Shown: positions 1 to 45,586, numbered from the stretch's first letter. The stretch is 64,000 bases of DNA from Alphaproteobacteria bacterium (GCA_963555825.3 CAUVXB020000002.1:2176001-2240000), one strand, 5' to 3'. Notes: generated by a model from the sequence alone, not told the origin. Made by a program: numbers and translations.

Positions 1-645
1 GAGGCGCGCATCGCCGAGGCCGCCCGGGACGCTGGCCGCGCGGCGCAAGACATCACGCTGGTCGCCATCGCCAAGATGCATGTCGATGCGCGTATCGTGC
101 CGGCGCTCGAGGCAGGCCACCGCGTGTTCGGCGAGAACCGCGTGCAGGAGGCCGAGGCCAAGTGGCCGGCGCTGAAGGCGCGCTACCCGGACGTCGCGCT
201 GCATTTGGTCGGCCCGCTGCAGACCAACAAGACGCGAAACGCCATAGCATTGTTCGACGTCATCGAGACCGTCGACCGACCCAAGCTGGCGCGCAGGTTG
301 GCCGGGGAGATGGACCGCGCCGGCAAGCGCCCGTCCTGTTTCATCGAGGTCAACACCGGCGAGGAAGCGCAGAAGGCAGGCGTCCTGCCGGCCGACGCCG
401 ACGCCTTCGTCGCGCTTTGTCGTGATGAGCTCGACCTGCCGATCGTCGGCCTGATGTGCATTCCGCCGTTCGACGACGAACCCTCGCTGCACTTCGCGCT
501 GTTGGCCGACATCGCCGCGCGCAACGGGCTCGACCAGATCAGCATGGGCATGACCGCGGATTTCGACGTCGCGGTGCGCTTCGGCGCGACCCATGTGCGC
601 GTCGGCACGGCGATCTTCGGCCAACGCCCGCCGCGCGGTGTCTAG
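1..645 (+). CDS. yggS: YggS family PLP-binding protein (5' truncated by window edge)
   Basis: Frame open from base 1; motifs FGENRVQE, HLVGPLQTNK, GLMCIPP, SMGMTADF, GATHVRVGTAIFG. Confidence 0.93.
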   Translation, partial: EARIAEAARDAGRAAQDITLVAIAKMHVDARIVPALEAGHRVFGENRVQEAEAKWPALKARYPDVALHLVGPLQTNKTRNAIALFDVIETVDRPKLARRLAGEMDRAGKRPSCFIEVNTGEEAQKAGVLPADADAFVALCRDELDLPIVGLMCIPPFDDEPSLHFALLADIAARNGLDQISMGMTADFDVAVRFGATHVRVGTAIFGQRPPRGV

Positions 646-709
646 GGCGGCGTCGGGACGCGAAGCATAGCCGGGCCCGGTTCACCGGTCGCACCGCGCC
701 CGGCGCGAC

Positions 710-734
710 GTCCGCTAACCGCTCGAAACCGGAC
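710..734. repeat. 25-bp outer palindrome of cassette-like island 1 (GTCCG-N15-CGGAC)
   Basis: GTCCGCTAACCGCTCGAAACCGGAC; its partner at 4556-4580 shares the arms and the central GCTCG. Confidence 0.7.
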
Positions 735-770
735 CTCCAAGCCGCTATTGCTCAATGTCTGGTTCTGACC

Positions 771-2456
771 CAGCCTGTGTAAAAACGTCGATGGTGTTAT
801 GATTCTCTCGTGCTTTGGCGGGAGGGTCTGATGAAGCGTTTTGTCGAGGGTGTCGATCGCAGCCAGGGCACGTTGTTTCCGGAGCGCCTGGAAGACTGGA
901 TCGGCGACGACAACCCGGTTCGGGCGATCGACGTCTTCGTCGATGAGCTCGATCTTGGCGGCCTCGGGTTCGACCGGGTCGAGCCGCTGGCGACCGGCAG
1001 GCCGGCCTATCATCCTTGCGATTTGTTGAAGCTCTACATCTACGGCTATCTCAACCGGGTTCAGTCGAGCCGTCGGCTCGAGAGGGAGGCCGGGCGCAAT
1101 GTGGAAGTGATGTGGCTGGTCGGCCGGCTGGCGCCGGATCACAAGACGATCGCCGACTTCGGCCAAGGACAATGGTTCTGCGATCCGCCAGGTCTGTGCC
1201 CAGTTCATCGCCCTGTGCCGCCAACTGGGGCTGTTTGCCGAGGCGAGCGTGGCGATCGATGGCGCCAAGTTCAAGGCGGTCAACAGCCGGGACAGGAACT
1301 TCACGCGGGCCAAGATGGCGCGGCGGGTGGCGCAGATCGAGGAGAGCGTTGCGCGCTATCTGCAGCAACTCGACAGCGCCGACCGGCAAGAGCCGTCGCT
1401 GGCGCGCACGACCAAGACGACTCGTCTGGCCGACAAGATTGCGATCCTCAAGCAGGAGATGCGGCGCCTGAAGGCGCTTGAAGTCGAGCGGCGTGCGAGC
1501 CCGGACCAGCAGATCTCTCTGAGCGATCCCGATGCCCGCTCGATGGCGACGAGCGGCCGGGGTTCCGGCGTGGTGGGCTACAACGTTCAGGCCGCCGTCG
1601 ACACCAAGCATCACCTGATCGTTGCCCACGAGGTGACCAATCAGGGCACTGACCGCGCCCAGCTCTCAGCCATGGCGAAGCGGACCAAGGCGGCTCTGGA
1701 GACCGACGAGTTGGATGTCGTTGCCGATCGCGGCTACTACAACGGCAAGGAGATTCTGGCCTGCGATCAGGCCGGCATCACCGTCACGTTGCCTAAGCCG
1801 CTGACCTCTGGAGCCAAGGCCAAGGGCCGCTTCGGCAAACAGGACTTCGTCTATCTGGCCGCCGACGATGTCTATCGCTGCCCGGCCGGCGAGCGTTTGG
1901 TCTACCGCTTCACCAGCCAGGAGAGGGGGCTGAGCATGCGGCGCTACTGGACCAACGCCTGTCAGGGATGCGCCATCAAGCATCGCTGCACCACGGCCAA
2001 GCAGCGCCGCATCACCCGTTGGCAGCACGAACACATTCTCGAGGCCGTCGAGAGGCGGCTCGACGAGCACCCGGAGGCGATGCGTCGGCGGCGCGAGACG
2101 GCCGAGCATCCCTTCGGCACCCTCAAGGCCTGGATGGGCGCGACGCACTTCCAGATGAAGACGCTGAAGCGGGTGAGGACCGAGATGGCCTTGCACGTGC
2201 TGGCCTACAATCTCAAGCGCGTCATGAACATCATGGGCATCGACCCGCTGATCGCGGCGATCAGGACGGCATAGGCGCCCCTGCGCCGACAATTACGCCC
2301 ATACCCGGCCACATCGCGGCTCACAACGGCGCCAGCCGGCCGAAAAGCCCGCACGAGCGGCGAAAATCCATAATCCCGGAAAACACGTCCCGACTGATCA
2401 TCCAAACCCAAAGACGCGCCACACAGAAATAGCAGCAAACGTTCTCACACAGGCTG
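771..2456 (+). mobile_element. IS1182 family insertion sequence
   Basis: Terminal IRs CAGCCTGTGTAAAAACGT / ACGTTCTCACACAGGCTG; 4-bp duplication GACC at 767-770 and 2457-2460; internal transposase. Confidence 0.9.
831..2274 (+). pseudogene. IS1182 transposase with +1 frameshift
   Basis: N-terminal part (GRPAYHP, SSRRLERE, PDHKTIADF) and C-terminal DDE part (AIDGAKFKA, VGYNVQ, ADRGYY, EHPFGTLK) are in different frames; TTC GGCC AAG GAC at about 1158-1170 instead of the expected F-R-K-D. Confidence 0.85.
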
Positions 2457-2618
2457 GACCCTTAACAGACACGTTGCGGTGTGTGGGATATGACAAAACT
2501 TGCGGACCATGTGGCGTGGCCAACCCGTCCTCGGCCACGCGTAGCCCGGTTTGGGTGGAACGGTACGATCAAGCCTGCGCGAGACGTGGAGCATTCCGCT
2601 GCAAACTCGAAGCATTAG

Positions 2619-2771
2619 CTAACCATTCGTCATGATTTGAACGAATTGGTGGCAGAATTCTACTGCCTTCTCGAGTCTGAGCGTTTGCCAGATGTTCACT
2701 CCGATCAGAACTATGATCATCACAAAGAGCGCGATCTCAATATGTTTGTGAGGCATCGTCGTTTGAGCCAT
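2619..2771 (-). CDS. 50-aa single-pass membrane hypothetical protein (absent from ORF track)
   Basis: MAQTTMPHKHIEIALFVMIIVLIGVNIWQTLRLEKAVEFCHQFVQIMTNG*; GGGGAAG RBS-like motif upstream; one hydrophobic stretch. Confidence 0.55.
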   Translation of the reverse strand: MAQTTMPHKHIEIALFVMIIVLIGVNIWQTLRLEKAVEFCHQFVQIMTNG

Positions 2772-2983
2772 TGATCTTCCCCCATTTGACCAAGATGTTC
2801 ACGATGAATTGCTGAGAAAGCCAACTCCATTGAACAATCATCCCACTGAGCGGGCCATGTATGCTAGCGATAGCATCTCAGTACACGTCTGAGAAAACGA
2901 AGAGCCCGTGACCCTACCCGAGTTGGGCAGGAATAATCCAGCTTCTCGCTCCCGCTCGAATGTCTTGTGTGGATGGCTCCCGC

Positions 2984-3228
2984 GTTGCAAGGACTTTTTT
3001 CGGCGTAGCGACCTAGTCAGGTACAGTCTTGTGTCCGGCCTGTTGATGCGGTTTTGTTGAACCGCTGGCCCTGATGGTATCCGTGGATCGGGTCCCTATC
3101 TGCTTAGCGGGCTCGAACACCCAGGACATTGGTCGGGTTGTCCCGATCCCCGGTCTGACCGGTTCGCCATCACGTCTCGTCGTCCTTGCAATCGTCGAAA
3201 GGCGTTGTGCCTTCGAGCGATCAATTGG
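2984..3228 (-). ncRNA. Putative bridge/seek RNA region of the IS1111-type element
   Basis: About 245-bp non-coding region 3' of the transposase, with short segments matching both target flanks and both element ends. Confidence 0.65.
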
Positions 3229-4263
3229 TCATGCGGTCTCCTCAGTTGCGGGTCGGTGAGCGCGGTAGGCCTCGCCACGGGTCATGATGACCCAGGCGAT
3301 CCGCGCGGCCTTGTTGGCCATGGCCACGGCGACCAGCTTGTTGGGCTTGCTTACCAGCAAGTTGGTGATCCAGGGGTGAACCTCGGGCTTGCGCCGTGCC
3401 GATTGAAGCTGTGATGTCATGCCGATCACCAGCAGACGGCGAAGATAGCGGTCCGCCATCTTGGAGATGCGTCCCATGCGATCCTTGCCGGCGCTGGAAT
3501 CGGCCTTGGGCGTTAGCCCGAGCGAGGCGGCAAACTGGCGAGCCGATGTGAACCGGTGCGGATCGGTGACCGAGGCCGCCAGCGCCGAGGCGGTGATGTA
3601 ACCAATCCCCGGAATGGTCGCGAGCCGTTTGGCCAGGTCGTTGCCGCGGAACCAGGTCTTGATCTCGCCCTCGATCATGGCGACCCGGGCTTGCAACTCG
3701 CGGATCTGCTCGGCCAGGGCAATGACGATCTTGCATGCCAGCGGGGGAATGTCCGGCACCACTCCTTCGACAAGCTGATCGACGAGCCTCAGCGCGTGAT
3801 GAATGCCTTTGGCCAGCACGATGCCCAACTCGGCCAGCTGGGACCGGATCATGTTGACCAGCTGGGTGCGCTGGCCGACCGGCAGATCCCGTGTTCGGTG
3901 GAGCGCCAGGACCGATTGCTGCTCGGCCGACTCGATCGCGACGAACCGCATCGTGGGGCGCGTCACCGCCTCGCAGATCGCCTCCGCATCGGCGGCGTCG
4001 GTCTTGCCGCGCTTGACGTATGGTTTGACGTAGATCGGTGGCATCAATTTCACCTCGTGCCCCAATGCCTGGAGCTCGCGGGACCAGAAGTGGCTCGTGC
4101 CGCACGCCTCGATACCGATCAGACACGGTTCCAGCTTGCCGAAGAACGGCATCATCTGGCGCCGGCGCAACGATCGGCGGACGATGACCTTGCCGGTGCT
4201 GTCAATGCCGTGGACTTGGAAAACGTTCTTGGCCAGATCGAGGCCGACAGTGGTAACTTTCAT
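3229..4263 (-). CDS. IS110 family DEDD transposase/recombinase
   Basis: MKVTTVGLDLAKNVFQVHG, IGIEACG, KTDAADAEAI, TIPGIG, DSSAGK, VAMANKAAR. Confidence 0.92.
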   Translation of the reverse strand: MKVTTVGLDLAKNVFQVHGIDSTGKVIVRRSLRRRQMMPFFGKLEPCLIGIEACGTSHFWSRELQALGHEVKLMPPIYVKPYVKRGKTDAADAEAICEAVTRPTMRFVAIESAEQQSVLALHRTRDLPVGQRTQLVNMIRSQLAELGIVLAKGIHHALRLVDQLVEGVVPDIPPLACKIVIALAEQIRELQARVAMIEGEIKTWFRGNDLAKRLATIPGIGYITASALAASVTDPHRFTSARQFAASLGLTPKADSSAGKDRMGRISKMADRYLRRLLVIGMTSQLQSARRKPEVHPWITNLLVSKPNKLVAVAMANKAARIAWVIMTRGEAYRAHRPATEETA

Positions 4264-4358
4264 GGCGGATAGCTCCTCTTGCTCGTGGTTGATAACAACC
4301 ACCACTTTGGCATCTCGGTGCCGGGAGCGGGAGCCATCCACCCCATCTGCTTATGGCC

Positions 4359-4519
4359 GAGGCTGTTGAAAAAGTCCCGAAACATCCATTTTGAGCCTGA
4401 ATTGGCCAATTCTCCGAAATCGGTGTTTTCCTAAGTCTTTGATTTCATTGAACTCGAATTCTCATTGGTTCCGGGAAATTGGCGAGTTTGGTTCCGCTAC
4501 CGACTTTTTCAACAGCCTC
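4359..4519. mobile_element. 161-bp MITE with IS1182-like ends
   Basis: Perfect IR GAGGCTGTTGAAAAAGTC / GACTTTTTCAACAGCCTC; flanks GGCC / GGCT; internal IHF-consensus match (TAAGTCTTTGATT). Confidence 0.8.
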
Positions 4520-4555
4520 GGCTATAAGCTGACGTTACGACGGATTGATCAGCAT

Positions 4556-4580
4556 GTCCGGTTCCTGCTCGTAAGCGGAC
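4556..4580. repeat. 25-bp outer palindrome closing island 1
   Basis: GTCCGGTTCCTGCTCGTAAGCGGAC, 22 bp after the inner palindrome ending at 4533. Confidence 0.7.
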
Positions 4581-4586
4581 CCGGCG

Positions 4587-5099
4587 TCAGCCGTCGCCGT
4601 CCTCCGCCGAGATACAAATCCGGGTGGTTTCGTCGCACTCGGCCAGGATGGCCAGCAGGTCCTCTCGCGCGACGGTGACGCAGCCCTCGGTCGGGCCAAA
4701 GTCGGGCCGCGCGACGTGGAGGAAGATGGCGCTGCCCGCGCCGGGCACCACAGGATCGCCGTTGTGGGCCAGCGCCACGACCACGTCGTAGAGCGCATCG
4801 TCGCGCCACAGGGTCTCGGTGCCGGCGGCGTGAGCGCTGCGGACCAGCGTGTTGTACGCGACATCGGCCGGGTCGTCGCACCAGGCGTCCGCCGGGTCGG
4901 TAGCGCTCACCGGCAGGGCCGTTTCGGGCGGCGCACCGCGGTCGGGGCGGTAATAGACGCGGCGCAGCGCGAAGCAGCCGGCCGGCGTCGCGCCGTCGCC
5001 CTCGCGCTTGACGTCGGTCACGCCGGCGCGGCCGAGCGCGCAGCGCAGGCGCCGGCCGCGCCATTCCAGCGTGCCGTCGGCGCTCACCCGGATGTCCAT
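4587..5099 (-). CDS. L,D-transpeptidase (YkuD-like) family protein
   Basis: KREGDGATP, GSAIFLH and PTEGCV motifs. Confidence 0.88.
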   Translation of the reverse strand: MDIRVSADGTLEWRGRRLRCALGRAGVTDVKREGDGATPAGCFALRRVYYRPDRGAPPETALPVSATDPADAWCDDPADVAYNTLVRSAHAAGTETLWRDDALYDVVVALAHNGDPVVPGAGSAIFLHVARPDFGPTEGCVTVAREDLLAILAECDETTRICISAEDGDG

Positions 5100-5240
5100 G
5101 GCGCACGTCCCTCTCTGCCCGCCCGCCACCATCGGCGCGTGGCGGCGGCTGTCAAGTCCGCCGCGCGCGCCGCGCCATTCTATTCTGGCTGACCGACCCT
5201 ATATAACTGGGGTATAGACAGCGGGACCAGTGAGGGAGAC

Positions 5241-5960
5241 GTGACTGCAATGGTGTCGAGGGACCGATCGCCGACCATCGGCAAGCGCATTCTGATCGTC
5301 GACGATGACGATGCGTTGCGTCAATCGCTCGCCGAACAGCTCGAGCTGCACGAGGAATTCGAGATCGGCGTGGCGGCGACCGGCGGCGACGCGCTCCAGG
5401 CGGTCAAGTCGCTGCGCTACGACATCGTGCTGCTCGACGTCGGCCTGCCCGACATCGACGGCCGCGAGCTGTGCAAGGTGATGCGCCGGGGCGGCCACAA
5501 GATGCCGATCATCATGCTGACCGCCGCCGACACCGATTCGGACACCATCTTGGGCCTCGAATCGGGCGCCAACGATTACGTCGCCAAGCCGTTCCGGCTC
5601 GGCGTCCTGCTCGCCCGCATGCGCGCCCAGCTGCGCCAGCACGAGCGGAGCGAGGACGCGGTTTTCTCGATCGGCCCCTACACCTTCCGGCCGAGCGCCA
5701 AGCTGCTCGTCGAGCCCGACAGCAACCGCAAGATCCGTCTGACCGAGAAGGAGACGGCGATCCTCAAATATCTCTACCGCGCGGGCGACAAGGTGGTCGC
5801 GCGCGAGGTGCTGCTCGACGAGGTCTGGGGCTACAACGCCGGCGTCGCGACCCATACGCTCGAGACACATATCTACCGGCTGCGCCAGAAGATCGAGCGC
5901 GACCCGAGCGACGCCGTCCTGCTGCTCACCGAACCCGGCGGCTACCGCCTGGCGCCTTGA
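5241..5960 (+). CDS. OmpR/PhoB family response regulator
   Basis: ILIVDDD, LLDVGLPD, GANDYVAKPF receiver domain plus winged-helix HTLETHIYRLRQKIE. Confidence 0.93.
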   Translation: MTAMVSRDRSPTIGKRILIVDDDDALRQSLAEQLELHEEFEIGVAATGGDALQAVKSLRYDIVLLDVGLPDIDGRELCKVMRRGGHKMPIIMLTAADTDSDTILGLESGANDYVAKPFRLGVLLARMRAQLRQHERSEDAVFSIGPYTFRPSAKLLVEPDSNRKIRLTEKETAILKYLYRAGDKVVAREVLLDEVWGYNAGVATHTLETHIYRLRQKIERDPSDAVLLLTEPGGYRLAP

Positions 5961-42392: not shown

Positions 42393-42471
42393 GATGGTTC
42401 CTCGATTTCAAGACGACGCTTCACGAGTGGTTGGCGCGGGCCCCGTTGGGTCGCGCTGGAAGCGGTCGTGT

Positions 42472-42633
42472 CTAAGGCGTGAAATCGACGCGCGCGCAGA
42501 GGATCAGGACATCGTGGCGGCGCGACAGCGCCGTGCAGCGAAGGTGCGTCACGCGGGACATGCCGCTGTTTAGCACGGCGCCGGCCGCGTTGTCATGCCG
42601 CGCGCCACGCGGCGGTCGAGTCTCGGATTGAGA
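42472..42633. repeat. About 162-bp direct repeat, copy 1
   Basis: Near-identical to 43030-43191 (one substitution seen). Confidence 0.9.
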
Positions 42634-42652
42634 CGGCGCGCCGCCGCTGCTC

Positions 42653-43030
42653 GCGGGCTTCAAGGTCCTGCCCCGGCGTTGGGTGGTGGAGCGCACCTTT
42701 GCCTGGCTGAGATGGGCCTTCCCCTGGCTGCGCCACGTCTTCGCCGATGGCGCCTACGCCGGACCGAAACTCGGCAAGGCGCTGGAAAAGATCGGCCAGT
42801 GGACGCTGGAGATCGTCAAGCGAAGCGACGACGTGACGGGCTTCAAGGTCCTGCCCCGGCGTTGGGTGGTGGAGCGCACCTTTGCCTGGCTCGGTCGACC
42901 GCCGTCTCGCCAAAGACTTCGAGGCCACCATCGCCAGCGCCGAGGCCTGGCTCATGATCGCAAGCATCCAACTCCTCACACGAAGGATCGCAAGGCTTTG
43001 AAATCAAACAATTCATTCCCGGCCGGGCTC
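42653..43030 (+). pseudogene. IS5 family (IS1031-like) transposase 3' fragments and right end
   Basis: GFKVLPRRWVVERTFAWL encoded twice, FADGAYAG, frameshifted tail, end CCGGGCTC-TAA. Confidence 0.8.
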
Positions 43031-43191
43031 TAAGGCGTGAAATCGACGCGCGCGCAGAGGATCAGGACATCGTGGCGGCGCGACAGCGCCGTGCAGCGAA
43101 GGTGCGTCGCGCGGGACATGCCGCTGTTTAGCACGGCGCCGGCCGCGTTGTCATGCCGCGCGCCACGCGGCGGTCGAGTCTCGGATTGAGA
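43030..43191. repeat. About 162-bp direct repeat, copy 2
   Basis: Near-identical to 42472-42633. Confidence 0.9.
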
Positions 43192-43287
43192 TGAGATGTG
43201 GTTCGATAGCTCGACGCCGACTCATATGTCGGTTCTCCGACCCAAAGCGGCCATCACTCTGGTGCGGCCGTTATGTCCGAGATTAGC

Positions 43288-44515
43288 TGCCGCCTCAACC
43301 GGTCGATGCAACACAAGCGTTGAATCTCTCTGCCGGTGTTTCAAACCCCAAGGTTTTGCGTGGCCGTTCGTTGAGCTGACGCGCCACTTTGTTCAGATGA
43401 GCCTGCGAGTATACCGACACGTCGGTGCCTTTGGGGAAGTACTGTCTGAGCAGGCCATTAGTGTTCTCATTGGAACCCCGTTGCCACGGGCTTTGCGGAT
43501 CACAGAAGTAGACATCGATGTCGGTCGCCAAGCTGAACCGGCGATGGTCCGCGAGTTCCTTGCCCCGGTCCCAGGTCAGGGACTTGTAGAGCTCGGTCGG
43601 CAGCTTCCTCGCCTGCCTGATGAGCGCGGATACCACTGTCAGGGTTTCCTTGTTGGCAACCTTTACCAACATCACGTAACGCGTTTGACGTTCGACCAGG
43701 GTCGCGATGTAGCTGTTCTTCGATCCCGACAACAGATCACCTTCCCAGTGACCCGGCACCGCCCGATCTTCGACCGAGGCCGGGCGCTCACGGATCGACA
43801 CCATGTCCGTGATTTGACCCCGGCCAACGCCTTTCCGGCGCGCCTCTTTCGAGCGTCGGATCGTGCGCTTCGATCGAAGATGCTGAAGCAGCTCCTTCTT
43901 AAGCACACCGCGGGCTTGAACAAACAAACTGCGATAGATCGTCTCGTGAGACACCTGATAAGACCCAGCTCCTGGATGCGCTCGCTTGAGCCATCCGGCG
44001 ATCTGCTCCGGTGACCAGTTCAACCCGAGCTTCATCGCCACCACCCGCCGCATCCCCGAACTCAGTGCCAGCTTACATCGCTTCGGGCGTCGCGCTCGAG
44101 CCCAGGCCATGTCATCGGCAAGCGCGGCACGATACTGATCATAACCGCCATTGCGGCGAACTTCCCGGCTCACCGTCGAGGGCGACCGGCTCAGCAACAA
44201 CGCCATCGATCGGATCGAGTGCCGGGCCACGATCCCCCGTGAGATCTCCTCGCGTTCCCATAGGCTCAACGCCAGCCGCGAGCGCCGTCGTGGCGAAGGC
44301 CGGATCCCGCCGTGCGGCGATAGTTGGAAATAAATCGACGACGACGGCTTACCAAACACCCGACCAATCGCCTTCAACGACTCCCCGCGTTGCCAGCGGT
44401 CCCAAAGCTCCGTCTTCTCTGCCGAACTGAACCCTCGACCATTTCTTCGCGTCATCTGCATACACTCCATCTCTTCGTTCAAGATAAAGTGTTGCGTCGA
44501 CCCATTGAGACCGCC
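43288..44515 (-). mobile_element. IS30 family insertion sequence
   Basis: Imperfect 26-bp IRs GCCGCCTCAACCGGTCGATGCAACAC / reverse complement GCGGTCTCAATGGGTCGACGCAACAC (21/26 by eye). Confidence 0.88.
43295..44461 (-). CDS. IS30 family transposase
   Basis: WSPEQIAG, SHETIY, GHWEGDL, TWDRGKE, WQRGSNENTNGLLRQYFPKG. Confidence 0.93.
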   Translation of the reverse strand: MQMTRRNGRGFSSAEKTELWDRWQRGESLKAIGRVFGKPSSSIYFQLSPHGGIRPSPRRRSRLALSLWEREEISRGIVARHSIRSMALLLSRSPSTVSREVRRNGGYDQYRAALADDMAWARARRPKRCKLALSSGMRRVVAMKLGLNWSPEQIAGWLKRAHPGAGSYQVSHETIYRSLFVQARGVLKKELLQHLRSKRTIRRSKEARRKGVGRGQITDMVSIRERPASVEDRAVPGHWEGDLLSGSKNSYIATLVERQTRYVMLVKVANKETLTVVSALIRQARKLPTELYKSLTWDRGKELADHRRFSLATDIDVYFCDPQSPWQRGSNENTNGLLRQYFPKGTDVSVYSQAHLNKVARQLNERPRKTLGFETPAERFNACVASTG

Positions 44516-44600
44516 CCCATTTTCGGACATTCCTGTCGTCTGGCATTTGTTTTTCAAACGAGTAATATTTCCTACGAATGAGAAAAATTGGAGAGTGGTT

Positions 44601-45503
44601 ATGACAGTCGAATTTGTTCGTACTCCAGATGAACGATTTTTCGATCTACCTGGGTTTAATTATCAGCCGAATTATTTGGAAGACTTACCTGGGTACGATG
44701 GCTTACGGACGCATTATATCGACGAAGGACCAAAAGATGCGAGGCACGTATTTCTCTGCCTACATGGCGAACCCGCTTGGGCCTATCTTTTTCGCAAAAT
44801 GATCCCTGTGTTTCTAAACGCTGGCCATAGGGTGATTGCACCAGACTTTTTTGGTTTCGGAAGATCGGATAAGCCGGTCGATGATGATGTTTATACTTTC
44901 CATTTTCATCGCAACTATCTAATCGCTTTGATCGAACGGCTTGAAATTTCGAATATTACTCTCGTCTGCCAGGATTGGGGTGGGTTGTTGGGATTAACCT
45001 TGCCCATGGACATGCCGGATCGGTTCAAACGCATGATCATCATGAACACGGCTCTTGCAGTTGGTGAGAGCCCAAGCGACGGCTTTATGCAATGGAGAGC
45101 TTTTGCCGCTGCTAATCCGGATATGGATGTGGCCACTTTAATGCAACGCGGCAGCTCGATTCTAAGCGACGCGGAGGCAGCCGCCTATGGGGCTCCGTTC
45201 CCTGATATTAAGTACAAGGCCGGGGTTCGTCGATTTCCGGACATGGTGATGATCTCGCCAGAGATGGAAGGAGTAGACACCTCGAAACGGGCGGTCGAAT
45301 TCTTGCGCAACGATTGGTCTGGGCAATGCTTCATGGCCTGCGGGGCTAGAGATCCGGTTCTCGGACCGCCCGTCATGCAGGTTATGAAGGAGATTGTTCG
45401 CGATTCCTCGGAAATCATGATGATCGAGGACGCAGGACATTTTGTTCAGGAGTGGGGAGAATCTGTTGCGGAGGCCGCGCTTAGGTACTTTGGCGATGTT
45501 TAG
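44601..45503 (+). CDS. Haloalkane dehalogenase (DhlA/HLD-I-like)
   Basis: RTPDERF, LHGEPAW, QDWGG nucleophile elbow, DPVLG, AGHFVQE; visibly AT-richer than the backbone. Confidence 0.88.
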   Translation: MTVEFVRTPDERFFDLPGFNYQPNYLEDLPGYDGLRTHYIDEGPKDARHVFLCLHGEPAWAYLFRKMIPVFLNAGHRVIAPDFFGFGRSDKPVDDDVYTFHFHRNYLIALIERLEISNITLVCQDWGGLLGLTLPMDMPDRFKRMIIMNTALAVGESPSDGFMQWRAFAAANPDMDVATLMQRGSSILSDAEAAAYGAPFPDIKYKAGVRRFPDMVMISPEMEGVDTSKRAVEFLRNDWSGQCFMACGARDPVLGPPVMQVMKEIVRDSSEIMMIEDAGHFVQEWGESVAEAALRYFGDV

Positions 45504-45515
45504 AACCGCGCCAAT

Positions 45516-45586
45516 GTCCGTTGTGGGTCAGATGCGGCTGTACCGATGACCGGGCGTCAAGGTCCGCCGTCTGGGGAAATGCAGAC
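45516..45586. repeat. 24-bp + 25-bp palindrome pair (22-bp spacer) closing island 2
   Basis: GTCCGTTGTGGGTCAGATGCGGCT (45516-45539) and GTCCGCCGTCTGGGGAAATGCAGAC (45562-45586). Confidence 0.7.

Follow-up and report, generated by a model that had tools for sequence, protein, structure and literature searches.

Mosaic palindromic repeats in an alphaproteobacterial genome suggest an undescribed gene-swapping site

The window analysed here, a stretch of 64,000 nucleotides from an alphaproteobacterial genome, opens with the 3' part of a yggS-like gene (1-645, + strand; open frame with its stop at 643-645; Pfam Ala_racemase_N, 2.3e-19) and continues, beyond an insert at 710-4580, with an L,D-transpeptidase gene, ldt (4587-5132, - strand; YkuD domain, 5.3e-13). 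These genes form the left and right conserved flanks and are convergent neighbours in loci of 16 relatives. The outer unit of the left half-element is a 25-bp palindrome (710-734, + strand; read from the sequence, 34.0 matrix bits, orientation a) of a family with about 100 copies. It is followed by a 22-bp linker (735-756), and by a 24-mer with a GACCC loop, whose left 15 bases (757-771, + strand) and right nine (2462-2470, + strand) were placed by reading the sequence and comparing IS1182-family flanks. An IS1182-family insertion sequence splits this 24-mer (772-2456, + strand; about 30 genome copies at 94-99% identity). Its transposase is frameshifted (ORFs 810-1481 and 1249-2274, with DUF772 and DDE_Tnp_1_6 domains), and a direct copy of GACCC adjoins the element on each side (767-771 and 2457-2461). 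The cargo is a 0.49-kb segment with a GC content of 0.52 (2471-2961), containing a 50-aa ORF with one hydrophobic stretch (2619-2771, - strand). It is single-copy in the genome, matches no Pfam family and has no real DNA match among 300 other genomes of the class; it was found in a sediment run with 1 mismatch in 327 bases. The second 24-mer, with a GGCT loop, lies in three pieces on the + strand, namely 2962-2965 (its first four bases), 4349-4354 plus one GGCY copy, and 4524-4533. It is interrupted by an IS110-family element (2966-4348, - strand; DEDD_Tnp_IS110 and Transposase_20 domains; four further full copies at 99% identity) and by a 161-bp MITE with perfect terminal inverted repeats (4359-4519; about 10 genome copies, the flanks of seven compared). 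The middle piece (4349-4358), placed by flank comparison, ends with the left of the MITE's two 4-bp RGCY target repeats (4355-4358 and 4520-4523), and the loop and distal arm lie at 4520-4533. The right 22-bp linker (4534-4555) and a 25-bp palindrome in the same orientation as the first (4556-4580, + strand) complete the right half-element. IS and MITE ends at this locus were set by comparison with other genome copies, and both 24-mers reconstructed in the initial annotation are of the correct length.

The 25-22-24 / 24-22-25 geometry recurs at 43228-45586, as the initial annotation had noted. On the left of this second locus, a diverged 25-mer (43228-43252) and its 22-bp linker (43253-43274; + strand, 14.1 matrix bits) belong to a subfamily common to the complete copies C2:3616688 and C2:1066956. 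Within the left 24-mer (43275-44530) sits an IS30-family element at about 43288-44519, with three full copies in the genome and a - strand transposase bearing HTH_38 and rve domains; as its ends are placed only approximately, the length of this 24-mer is presumed. The cargo (44531-45515, + strand; GC 0.49) comprises a lone alpha/beta-hydrolase gene (44601-45503; Abhydrolase_1, 7.6e-29) and its upstream region, with no further copy in the genome. The right side is exact, with a 24-mer at 45516-45539, a linker of 22 bp at 45540-45561 and a 25-mer at 45562-45586 (+ strand; about eight related subfamily copies).

These palindromes belong to a mosaic repeat family that is lineage-specific and numbers about 100 copies genome-wide. 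One kind of unit is 25 bp long and two are 24 bp long, the latter with GACCC or GGCT as the loop; GTCYG...CRGAC ends are common to all, with a layout of 10-5-10 in the 25-mer and about 10-4-10 in the 24-mers. Linkers are fixed at 22 bp between 25-mer and 24-mer and at 36 bp where one 25-mer follows another. A complete element has the order 24-22-25-(36-25)-22-24, and the window holds the permuted form in which cargo lies between 25-22-24 and 24-22-25. The frequency of the pattern is beyond chance: the window has two occurrences of 25-22-GTCNG where 0.01 would be expected (two or more in 0 of 100 shuffles), a 25-mer weight matrix with its threshold at 16 bits finds 104 matches in the genome and 3 in the shuffled genome, an IUPAC 25-mer with up to two mismatches finds 53 against 0 in a reversed control, and 25-22-GTCYG with up to one mismatch finds 74 against a control of 9. 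The full pattern of the initial annotation has three intact matches genome-wide, most copies being IS-interrupted or deviating. Among 13 genomes of the order, modules clearly exceed the control only in the host genome and in G001, from a different genus (72 matches against 7). One whole element with its spacer is conserved in another genus, and the single-25-mer form is present in G001 and at C2:3589996. We found 26 doublets at 60-61 bp spacing, with three recurrent types of 36-bp spacer; by inspection, eight of them have no recognisable 24-mer on at least one side. The copies listed sit in intergenic contexts. Set against a MITE, with its terminal inverted repeats, target-site duplication and related autonomous IS, complete elements have palindromic 24-mer ends and are near-identical within G001, as after recent spread; neither a target-site duplication nor a parent IS was seen for them, and no Rfam family matched at four element-holding loci. 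As a side observation, about 130 of 200 matches to GTCNG-N15-CNGAC are, by inspection, unrelated background, and lengths in multiples of three are also enriched.

The insert at the first locus had been described as symmetric, which holds for the mirrored order of units and no further: the 25-mers on either side are direct repeats, both at 34.0 bits in orientation a and at 9.0 and 14.2 bits on the other strand. Additionally, the 25-mer arms lack compensatory changes in 103 oriented copies. The two positions of pair 4:22, like those of pair 6:20, change independently of each other; C:A, T:G, G:G and C:C combinations are common, and the counts at 4:22 (C:G 35, C:A 21, T:G 19, T:A 10) are about those expected from independence. 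This fits double-stranded protein-binding half-sites rather than hairpins.

Related metagenome contigs bear on whether the contents of a bracket change. The empty yggS-ldt junction that the initial annotation proposed to look for in relatives was found in contig L052, and filled alleles across related strains hold three unrelated cargos: the 0.49-kb segment with its small ORF in the window strain, 1.64 kb encoding a 468-aa membrane protein in the IS-free bracket of L053, and, in L050 and L051, 3.2 kb or more carrying a cyclase-AAA-TPR gene, the cyclase having at least 1082 aa. The cargos of contigs L050, L051 and L053 have no DNA match in the host genome; at the protein level it holds only 34% relatives of the cyclase and none of the L053 protein. 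The empty allele matches window positions 1-637 and resumes at 4587 after 17 bases of different sequence; by inspection, the empty site carries an inverted repeat of 9 bp around a loop of 9 bp. The filled allele differs by more than a simple insertion: it replaces these 17 bp and adds a 72-bp segment outside the repeat family (638-709, including the final yggS codons), which is absent from the empty allele, present in filled ones and without a second copy in the genome. Over 618-709, which begins 20 bases further upstream in yggS, L053 is identical at 90 of 92 positions.

At this one locus compared, homology between strains breaks at or inside the 24-mers. The left linker is identical to that of L053 at 19 of 22 positions, and both arms of the left 24-mer at only 5/9. 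On the right, identity to L053 is 24/25 in the 25-mer, 20/22 in the linker (19/22 to L050) and 9/10 in the distal 24-mer arm (also 9/10 to L050); it falls to 5/10 in the proximal arm (4/10 to L050) and to 7-8/30 in the adjoining cargo. Between L053 and L050, the distal arm is identical at 10/10 positions and the proximal arm at 2/10. The background among paralogues is 3.6/10 for the proximal arm and a mean of 6.4/22 against 26 paralogous modules for the linker, the latter measured for the right-hand linker only. The two break points lie at non-equivalent positions in the left and right 24-mers.

Across the genome, half-elements pair around IS-rich, lower-GC unique DNA. Among 35 neighbour pairs 0.8-20 kb apart, 12 have a right-hand then a left-hand 24-mer, one has the reverse order and two are same-sided. 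Nine single-single pairs, by inspection, face inward in the same orientation; the remaining three comprise one in reverse order with an IS110 in the spacer, one same-sided and one inverted. Single-gene cargo had been proposed; the brackets do enclose variable unique segments, mostly of one to three genes. Clean one-gene brackets listed are the IS-free one around a CBS-domain gene (C2:3229103-3230071), that of the alpha/beta-hydrolase and that of L053. Cargo GC of 0.52, 0.49 and 0.59, against 0.65-0.72 in the flanks, makes the cargo look foreign, and the DNA between inward-facing 24-mers is accessory and varies from strain to strain among relatives. Cargo genes point in either direction, no cargo is common to two different brackets in the genome, and inspection of cargo edges revealed neither target duplication nor conserved motif. 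G001 holds array-like gene-element-gene strings with unrelated genes (DUF1989, amidinotransferase-like, GNAT, GMC oxidoreductase).

The 24-mers are also entry points for four types of mobile element, namely IS1182-, IS110- and IS30-family ISs and one MITE. Left flanks of the IS1182-family element end in GACCC in 22 of 28 copies, and a 25-mer lies on the same side at a fixed distance, with the 22-bp linker length, in 23 of the 28. These flanks are far more diverged than the element itself (94-99% identical), so the ISs entered pre-existing sites and the motifs are not decayed ends of the nested ISs. AATGTCY precedes the IS110-family element in all five copies compared; its insertion point, after base 4 of the 24-mer, differs from the homology break point. 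The consensus of 35 right-type modules already includes the IS1182 end, and many brackets are crowded with ISs, including elements of up to 85-105 copies.

No recombinase was found in or beside any bracket. Of 45 tyrosine-recombinase matches, a single one lies less than 10 kb from a 25-mer, and it is a stop-containing, truncated remnant adjoining a tRNA. No integron integrase is present: the best match to the model TIGR02249 scores 79 bits, below the cut-off of 265. The genome has three Y1_Tnp genes, with no repeat units flanking their loci and no RAYT link. In the order, 9 of 13 genomes carry Y1_Tnp, some of them with module counts no higher than background, and these genes do not correlate with repeat copy number. 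Three sequencing runs holding this strain were searched for the excised circles that the initial annotation had suggested; no excision or circle joint was seen, and their contigs reproduce the IS junctions exactly.

How, then, might the contents of a bracket be replaced? We tentatively propose, as a reading that falls somewhat short of probable, that 24-mer-bounded segments are exchanged at dimeric-protein sites by a trans-encoded enzyme. The units would be double-stranded binding sites, at which a dimeric protein reads GTCYG half-sites. The 25-mer and linker would form a resident platform, and a conservative, site-specific reaction, cutting at or within the 24-mers, would insert, remove or exchange the segments that they bound. 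Candidates for its enzyme, which would be encoded elsewhere, are any of the 45 tyrosine-recombinase matches, a Y1 HUH enzyme and, acting in trans, a DEDD recombinase of the IS110 type; ISs targeting the same 24-mers would later accumulate in the brackets. In favour of the proposal are the family's copy number and geometry, the pairing grammar, the clean one-gene brackets, the foreign look of the cargo and its polymorphism at yggS-ldt, the positions of the homology breaks, arms that read as binding sites and the gene-element-gene strings of G001. The proposal is weakened by the want of an adjacent recombinase, an IntI, a Y1 link and an excision joint, by the unclean filled allele, the non-equivalent breaks, the single locus compared and the mixed cargo orientation, and by cargo edges free of motif or duplication. 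Overall, the interpretation in the initial annotation is partly supported: its phased binding sites for a trans-acting recombinase agree with arms that resemble half-sites, but no recombinase accompanies them.

IS crowding could also drive turnover alone. Since the 24-mers are plain IS targets, a serious competitor to our proposal is that insertion hot spots turn over passively, which we consider rather unlikely. The repeats would then be REP/BIME-type structural elements (terminators or nucleoid-protein sites) with IS-preferred 24-mers and no cassette enzyme, and cargo would change through IS-mediated insertion and deletion together with homologous recombination between ISs at identical bracket positions. 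The fixed 24-mer positions of the four element types (GACCC in 22/28, AATGTCY in 5/5, the MITE at RGCY), the IS1182 end in the right-type consensus and the IS-rich brackets all suit this explanation. Moreover, REPs are favoured targets of five IS families (IS3, IS4, IS5, IS110 and IS256) according to one study (PMC1525189). It fits poorly with IS-free brackets that hold a single gene between intact 24-mers; homology between ISs cannot account for the arrival of a new proximal arm together with new cargo at sites free of ISs, and the inward, same-orientation pairing of half-elements requires a structured precursor.

Alternatively, the whole bracket may be one non-autonomous transposon with ends 25-22-24 and 24-22-25, moved by an HUH/Y1 or other transposase that recognises the ends on one strand, as in IS200/IS605-type elements and their gene-less derivatives. 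The yggS-ldt cargos would then be independent insertions into the preferred terminator-like palindrome of the empty allele, whose inverted repeat agrees with this idea, as do 25-mers in direct copies like the end hairpins of single-strand transposons, the presence or absence of the whole unit and the three Y1_Tnp genes. We regard it as improbable: at yggS-ldt the linkers and distal arms are orthologous (linkers 19-21/22, against 6.4/22 for paralogues) and only inner parts change, the arms lack compensatory change, the Y1_Tnp genes are neither unit-flanked nor correlated with units, and no two brackets in the genome have a cargo in common. There might even be nothing special here, just ordinary intergenic palindromes or terminators, chance geometry and ordinary indels, given that GC-rich genomes hold many GTC...GAC palindromes (about 130 of 200 simple matches being unrelated) and that multiples-of-three lengths are enriched. 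This is hardly credible, being contradicted by the shuffle and reversed-pattern controls, the conserved linkers and spacers, the whole element in another genus and the pairing grammar.

Our exchange proposal recalls several known systems. The likeness to integrons and attC sites, including the Vibrio VCR, lies in unrelated, often small single genes with structured repeats (about 120-180 bp) between them, in the arrays of G001 and in an enzyme that would act in trans. The initial annotation had spoken of an integron-like logic; the genome has no IntI, cargo orientation is mixed, unlike that of co-oriented cassettes beside attI, and sites are chromosome-wide with half-sites at the ends. By inspection, a GTTRRRY-type core is missing and the linkers on the two sides lack complementarity; three to four separate local palindromes replace the one long attC hairpin with its R''/L''/L'/R' boxes. 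The pdif sites of plasmid dif modules are 28 bp long (11-6-11) and bound by XerC/XerD, whereas the sites here are 10-5-10 and about 10-4-10 with a second site 22 bp away, and are chromosomal and dispersed. In three reports on Acinetobacter (PMC13141974, PMC6449649, PMC10132070), small accessory modules lie between short inverted-arm recombination sites and a recombinase encoded elsewhere moves them, an arrangement that the brackets here may share, and ISs target pdif sites in one orientation. Set beside IS200/IS605-type elements, which have direct subterminal hairpins at both ends and a Y1 transposase acting on them, the repeats here show direct 25-mer copies but neither covariation nor a Y1 gene link. 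The dRS3/NIME repeats and minimal mobile elements of Neisseria and the Brucella Bru-RS are mosaic intergenic palindromic repeats acting as integration or IS hot spots, or alternative cassettes between conserved flanks; their sequences are unrelated to those here, and minimal mobile elements are thought to be moved by homologous recombination of flanking genes, not at repeats.

ISPpu9 of Pseudomonas putida encodes a REP-targeting DEDD recombinase that reportedly circularises passenger modules alone (ssr9) and inserts them into REPs (PMC12288879). Here too, IS110-family elements target the family's own 24-mers, but no IS110 end sequences could be made out at cargo ends. BIMEs of enterobacteria and pseudomonads are mosaics of palindromic units with linkers. 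Our repeats are likewise short extragenic imperfect palindromes in tens to hundreds of copies, combined into mosaics in which linkers of set length join two or three types of unit. They differ in having units of 24/25 bp with GTCYG ends and no GTAG-type guide seen, no unit-flanked RAYT (REPtron), Y1 genes that do not track copy number, arms that lack compensatory change and half-elements that pair around variable cargo. A literature search returned no BIME report of half-elements around variable cargo, which does not establish absence from print. We view the repeats as a REP/BIME-type variant marking gene-swap sites; they suggest a gene-swapping site of an undescribed kind, for which a cassette mechanism is plausible.

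In the host genome (6.04 Mb, 65% GC, two contigs, C1 and C2), 3.9 kb separate the stop codon of a yggS-like gene (Pfam Ala_racemase_N, stop at 643-645) from that of a convergent L,D-transpeptidase gene (ldt, YkuD domain, 4587-5132). Nested in this stretch are an IS1182-family element (772-2456; about 30 copies; DUF772 and DDE_Tnp_1_6 domains, with the transposase frameshifted here and direct GACCC on either side), an IS110-family element (2966-4348; 4 further full copies at 99% identity) and a 161-bp MITE (4359-4519) with 4-bp RGCY target repeats, their ends being set from other genomic copies. Excising them leaves the geometry claimed in the initial annotation: a palindromic 25-bp repeat (25-mer, 710-734), 22 bp, a palindromic 24-mer, a cargo of 0.49 kb unique DNA (2471-2961), a second 24-mer, 22 bp and a second 25-mer (4556-4580). 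Its recurrence at 43228-45586 could also be confirmed, with a 24-mer at 45516-45539, a linker at 45540-45561 and a 25-mer at 45562-45586 on the right, and a 25-mer (43228-43252) with its 22-bp linker on the left, where the 24-mer is split by an IS30-family element (HTH_38 and rve domains, ends approximate). The symmetry described for these inserts holds for the order of the units, which is mirrored (25-22-24 / 24-22-25), but not for the two 25-mers, which are direct copies when judged by their asymmetric loop. The window contains no complete element. Two half-elements are present instead, a right half (25-22-24) and, from another element, a left half (24-22-25); their 24-mers point towards the cargo, an arrangement hereafter called a bracket. 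Just upstream of the second locus, an intergenic direct duplication of about 165 bp (42470-42640 and 43030-43195) surrounds an IS5-like transposase gene fragment (42640-43030).

These units belong to a large repeat family. The window has two occurrences of the pattern 25-22-GTCNG, where 0.01 would be expected. Throughout the host genome, a 25-mer weight matrix with a cut-off of 16 bits found 104 sites (as against 3 when the genome was shuffled), an IUPAC 25-mer pattern found 53 with up to 2 mismatches (0 with a reversed control), and 25-22-GTCYG with at most 1 mismatch found 74 (9 in the control). With all sites listed in one orientation, the full unit reads 24-mer with a GGCT(A) loop, 22 bp, 25-mer, 36 bp, 25-mer, 22 bp, 24-mer with a GACCC loop. 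In all, 26 doublets of 25-mers are present, with three recurring spacer types; by inspection of the listing, 8 of the 26 have no recognisable 24-mer on at least one side. The second locus derives from another, diverged family whose spacer measures 83 bp. A profile of the left module did not match the right module over its full length, since their linkers are of two different types. A suspected systematic contrast between inner and outer 25-mer arms gained no backing from a consensus comparison, and an Rfam search of four element-bearing loci returned tRNA matches only, with no known RNA or structured family. A dense array at C1:499524-499830 comprises five 25-mers, and two of its elements abut at 73-bp spacing with almost no 24-mer between the linkers; this could be an unoccupied or collapsed bracket.

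The alleles at the yggS-ldt junction of relatives are central to our interpretation. The two genes are adjacent and convergent in 16 loci of family- and class-level relatives, and among 10 of these the gap is 4-62 bp in eight, the remaining two having gaps of 213 bp and 225 bp. The 225-bp gap is that of locus L011 in a distant relative (G010), and contains a stretch like an IS1182-family end (..CAGTCTGTGTGAATAC..); from its sequence, this junction may have been hit independently by a related element. When metagenomes were scanned with the ldt protein, four close relatives were recovered (84-87% amino-acid identity), and among them was the empty junction that had been sought: L052 matches the host genome on both sides (93.7% and 90.6%), with 17 bp replacing window positions 638-4586. 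L053 shares the 72-bp left segment, the 25-mer, the linker and the right half with the host genome, and its left 24-mer is intact; the 1.64 kb of other DNA in between encodes a multi-pass membrane protein of 468 aa without a Pfam family. In L050 and L051, that right half adjoins at least 3.2 kb encoding a guanylate-cyclase/AAA/TPR protein (at least 1082 aa). The cargos of these relatives had no match in the host DNA; at the protein level, the host holds relatives of the cyclase at only 34% and none of the L053 protein. The cargo is variable inside the same brackets, as had been proposed, with three different fillings and an empty allele at one junction.

Where the alleles diverge can be read from segment identities. 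On the right side, the host genome and L053 share 24/25 positions of the 25-mer, 20/22 of the linker, 9/10 of the distal arm of the 24-mer and 4/4 of its loop, then 5/10 of its proximal arm and 7-8/30 of the cargo. The distal and proximal arms of L053 and L050 agree at 10/10 and 2/10 positions, respectively. In comparisons with 26 paralogous modules, the linker agrees on average at 6.4/22 positions and the proximal arm at 3.6/10. On the left side, the linker agrees at 19/22 positions and both 24-mer arms at just 5/9. These identities indicate that the outer 25-mer and linker are orthologous, and on the alignments the exchanged part begins at the left 24-mer and ends inside the right 24-mer. 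The filled allele also has 72 extra and 17 replaced bases relative to the empty one, and so is not a textbook clean insertion.

Neighbouring 25-mers lying 0.8-20 kb apart form 35 pairs, 12 of which have the inward 24-mer order of the window, 1 the reverse order and 2 a same-sided order, while each of the remaining 20 includes at least one site that a simple test could not classify. Given that inward order is automatic for adjacent complete elements, only single half-elements are informative; by inspection of the listing, pairs of these were inward and in the same orientation in 9 cases, against 1 reverse (with an IS110 copy in the spacer), 1 same-sided and 1 inverted. Outside the pairs the DNA is core-like with a GC content of 0.65-0.72; inside it is IS-rich, with unique stretches at 0.47-0.62. 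Besides the pairs, arrays occur at C2:2633546-2647762 and C2:3489861-3498706. One IS-free bracket (C2:3229103-3230071) holds a CBS-pair gene with its upstream region, and the second locus in the window, whose only IS is the IS30 copy interrupting the left 24-mer, holds one alpha/beta-hydrolase gene with its upstream region. Larger brackets contain sensor kinases, a TRAP transporter, cyclases and oxidoreductases, and no recombinase was seen in them among the part of their ORFs compared with Pfam. Against 300 other genomes of the class, the yggS-ldt cargo gave four matches of 32-61 bases (E 6e-5 to 7e-4), none a real match, and its 50-aa ORF and three other cargo ORFs had no Pfam family. Inspection of cargo edges revealed neither target duplications nor conserved motifs. 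Adenylate/guanylate-cyclase-type genes recur as cargo across loci and strains (L050 1864-5112; C2:2029707-2031434; C2:2923748-2924140), though only distantly related to each other and with the two host ORFs judged by eye. At C1:28220-30685, an inverted pair of right-type half-elements, itself set within 288-bp inverted repeats (94% identity), surrounds about 1.6 kb including a cyclase-like stretch; from its layout, this would be a bracket of an inverted kind.

The 24-mers are also insertion targets. Left flanks of IS1182-family copies end in GACCC in 22 of 28 cases. A 25-mer at the fixed spacing accompanies 23 of the 28, without exception on one and the same side of the IS, and a consensus drawn from 35 right-type modules already extends into the IS end. 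The IS110-family element follows AATGTCY in all 5 copies compared, the MITE site is the GGCY loop of a 24-mer, and an IS30-family element lies inside a 24-mer at two loci. Since the flanks are much more diverged than the IS copies themselves, the ISs entered older sites, and the idea that the motifs are decayed IS ends was rejected. The IS30-family copies at C1:939928-941172 and window 43287-44531 agree at 100% along 1245 bp, a stretch that reaches 12 bases past the likely right end of the IS; it seems that one copy took along flanking 24-mer bases, or that gene conversion occurred. The IS load of the host genome is massive (an IS3-like element in about 85 copies, another element in about 74 and the IS1182 family in about 30). 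Taken with the presence of the window in sponge-metagenome runs (low-share sediment runs were excluded as habitat evidence), this expansion fits a recently host-restricted lifestyle, and the genome is marine and probably host-associated.

Three sequencing runs (X16, X20 and X1) have the structure of the window, with contigs covering 1-795, 2454-2986 and 4495-5400. They yielded no excision joints and no polymorphism, and are therefore uninformative on mobility. In sediment run X6 the cargo is present with a single mismatch over 327 bases, and the yggS and ldt pieces are 2-3% different. One contig of this run links 733 to 4554 via 36 other letters that resemble an element spacer; this joint may represent an empty allele of the form 25-36-25 or come from an unrelated copy of the element. 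Close relatives are also represented in public sponge and sediment data by contigs of 85-97% identity. Modules are clearly above control in 2 of 13 genomes of the order, the host (74 vs 9) and G001, of another genus (72 vs 7); the few copies in G007 and G004 may be real, and one whole 25-36-25-22-24 element, its spacer being of the type seen in the host genome, is retained in G004. Consecutive unrelated genes of G001 (GMC oxidoreductase, DUF1989, amidinotransferase-like, GNAT) are separated by elements that are nearly identical and contain just one 25-mer (24-22-25-22-24). This string looks like a cassette array; equally, it could be repeats in successive intergenic spaces.

Another question regards the enzyme. 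An integron was rejected, as no integron integrase was found in the host genome, and so was a RAYT/REPtron link, for which no RAYT association was found. The genome carries an unusually heavy load of 45 PF00589 matches, and only one of these tyrosine recombinases lies within 10 kb of a 25-mer, a truncated remnant beside a tRNA gene. There (L045 1-1560; C1:765337-766900), the tRNA gene precedes a phage-type integrase that is truncated and contains stops, and next comes a complete repeat element whose 24-mer carries an IS1182 copy; the locus resembles a decayed island with its edge at the repeat. Adjacent trios of tyrosine-recombinase genes at C2:601578-603959, C2:2326091-2329931 and C2:3600917-3603298 resemble 'recombinase in trio' elements. 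For ISPpu9, a REP-targeting IS110 enzyme is reported to be able to move passenger modules (PMC12288879), which makes an enzyme of that kind, with its non-coding RNA, a candidate here. Further candidates are the Xer-like and other tyrosine recombinases and three Y1 proteins.

Among 103 oriented 25-mers, variable positions in one arm change independently of those in the other (pair 4:22 is C:G in 35, C:A in 21, T:G in 19 and T:A in 10), which speaks against hairpin selection and argues that the 25-mers are putative double-stranded, dimer-type binding sites with GTCYG half-sites. Our preferred reading, held tentatively and at somewhat under an even chance, is that the 25-mer and linker would form a resident platform, that segments bounded by 24-mers would be exchanged conservatively, and that the enzyme would be encoded elsewhere. 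The wider proposal is rather doubtful: a chromosomal, integrase-less cassette system, common to at least two genera of one alphaproteobacterial-type family, in which segments of one to a few genes with 24-bp palindromic ends would dock between 25-bp palindromic platforms, read at GTCYG half-sites by a putative trans-acting site-specific recombinase, and which IS1182-, IS110- and IS30-family elements and the MITE would have colonised secondarily. The main rival is passive turnover at an IS hot spot, to be read beside the targeting of 24-mers by several elements; we regard it as a serious contender, if on the unlikely side. Alternatively, the whole bracket might be one transposon, which would fit the direct 25-mers and the presence/absence allele. 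Orthologous outer parts together with changed inner parts do not suit such a transposon, making it improbable.

If the brackets are true exchange sites, they would represent a third logic for single-gene movement in bacteria, beside integrons and Xer/dif modules. The role of REP/BIME-type repeats has been argued over for decades; exchange sites resembling such ordinary repeats would give this repeat class a testable function, and the fixed geometry and half-site offer concrete bait for a putative binding protein. Even if turnover is passive, one empty and three filled alleles are a clean natural example of palindromic repeats seeding accessory-gene islets and focusing IS expansion. A literature search found no account of palindromic half-elements around swappable cargo, which is not proof of absence.

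Integrons and VCR arrays are similar in appearance, but the family described here fails their defining features; Xer/dif modules follow a similar logic, and the features that define them are likewise not those of this family. BIMEs are built of fixed units and fixed linkers, as is this family, which nonetheless differs from REPs in failing both the RAYT link and stem covariation. It also shares with REPs, described as targets for five IS families (PMC1525189), the role of an IS target. Finally, each unit, with arms of about 10 bp around a 4-6-bp centre, is like the core site of a recombinase.
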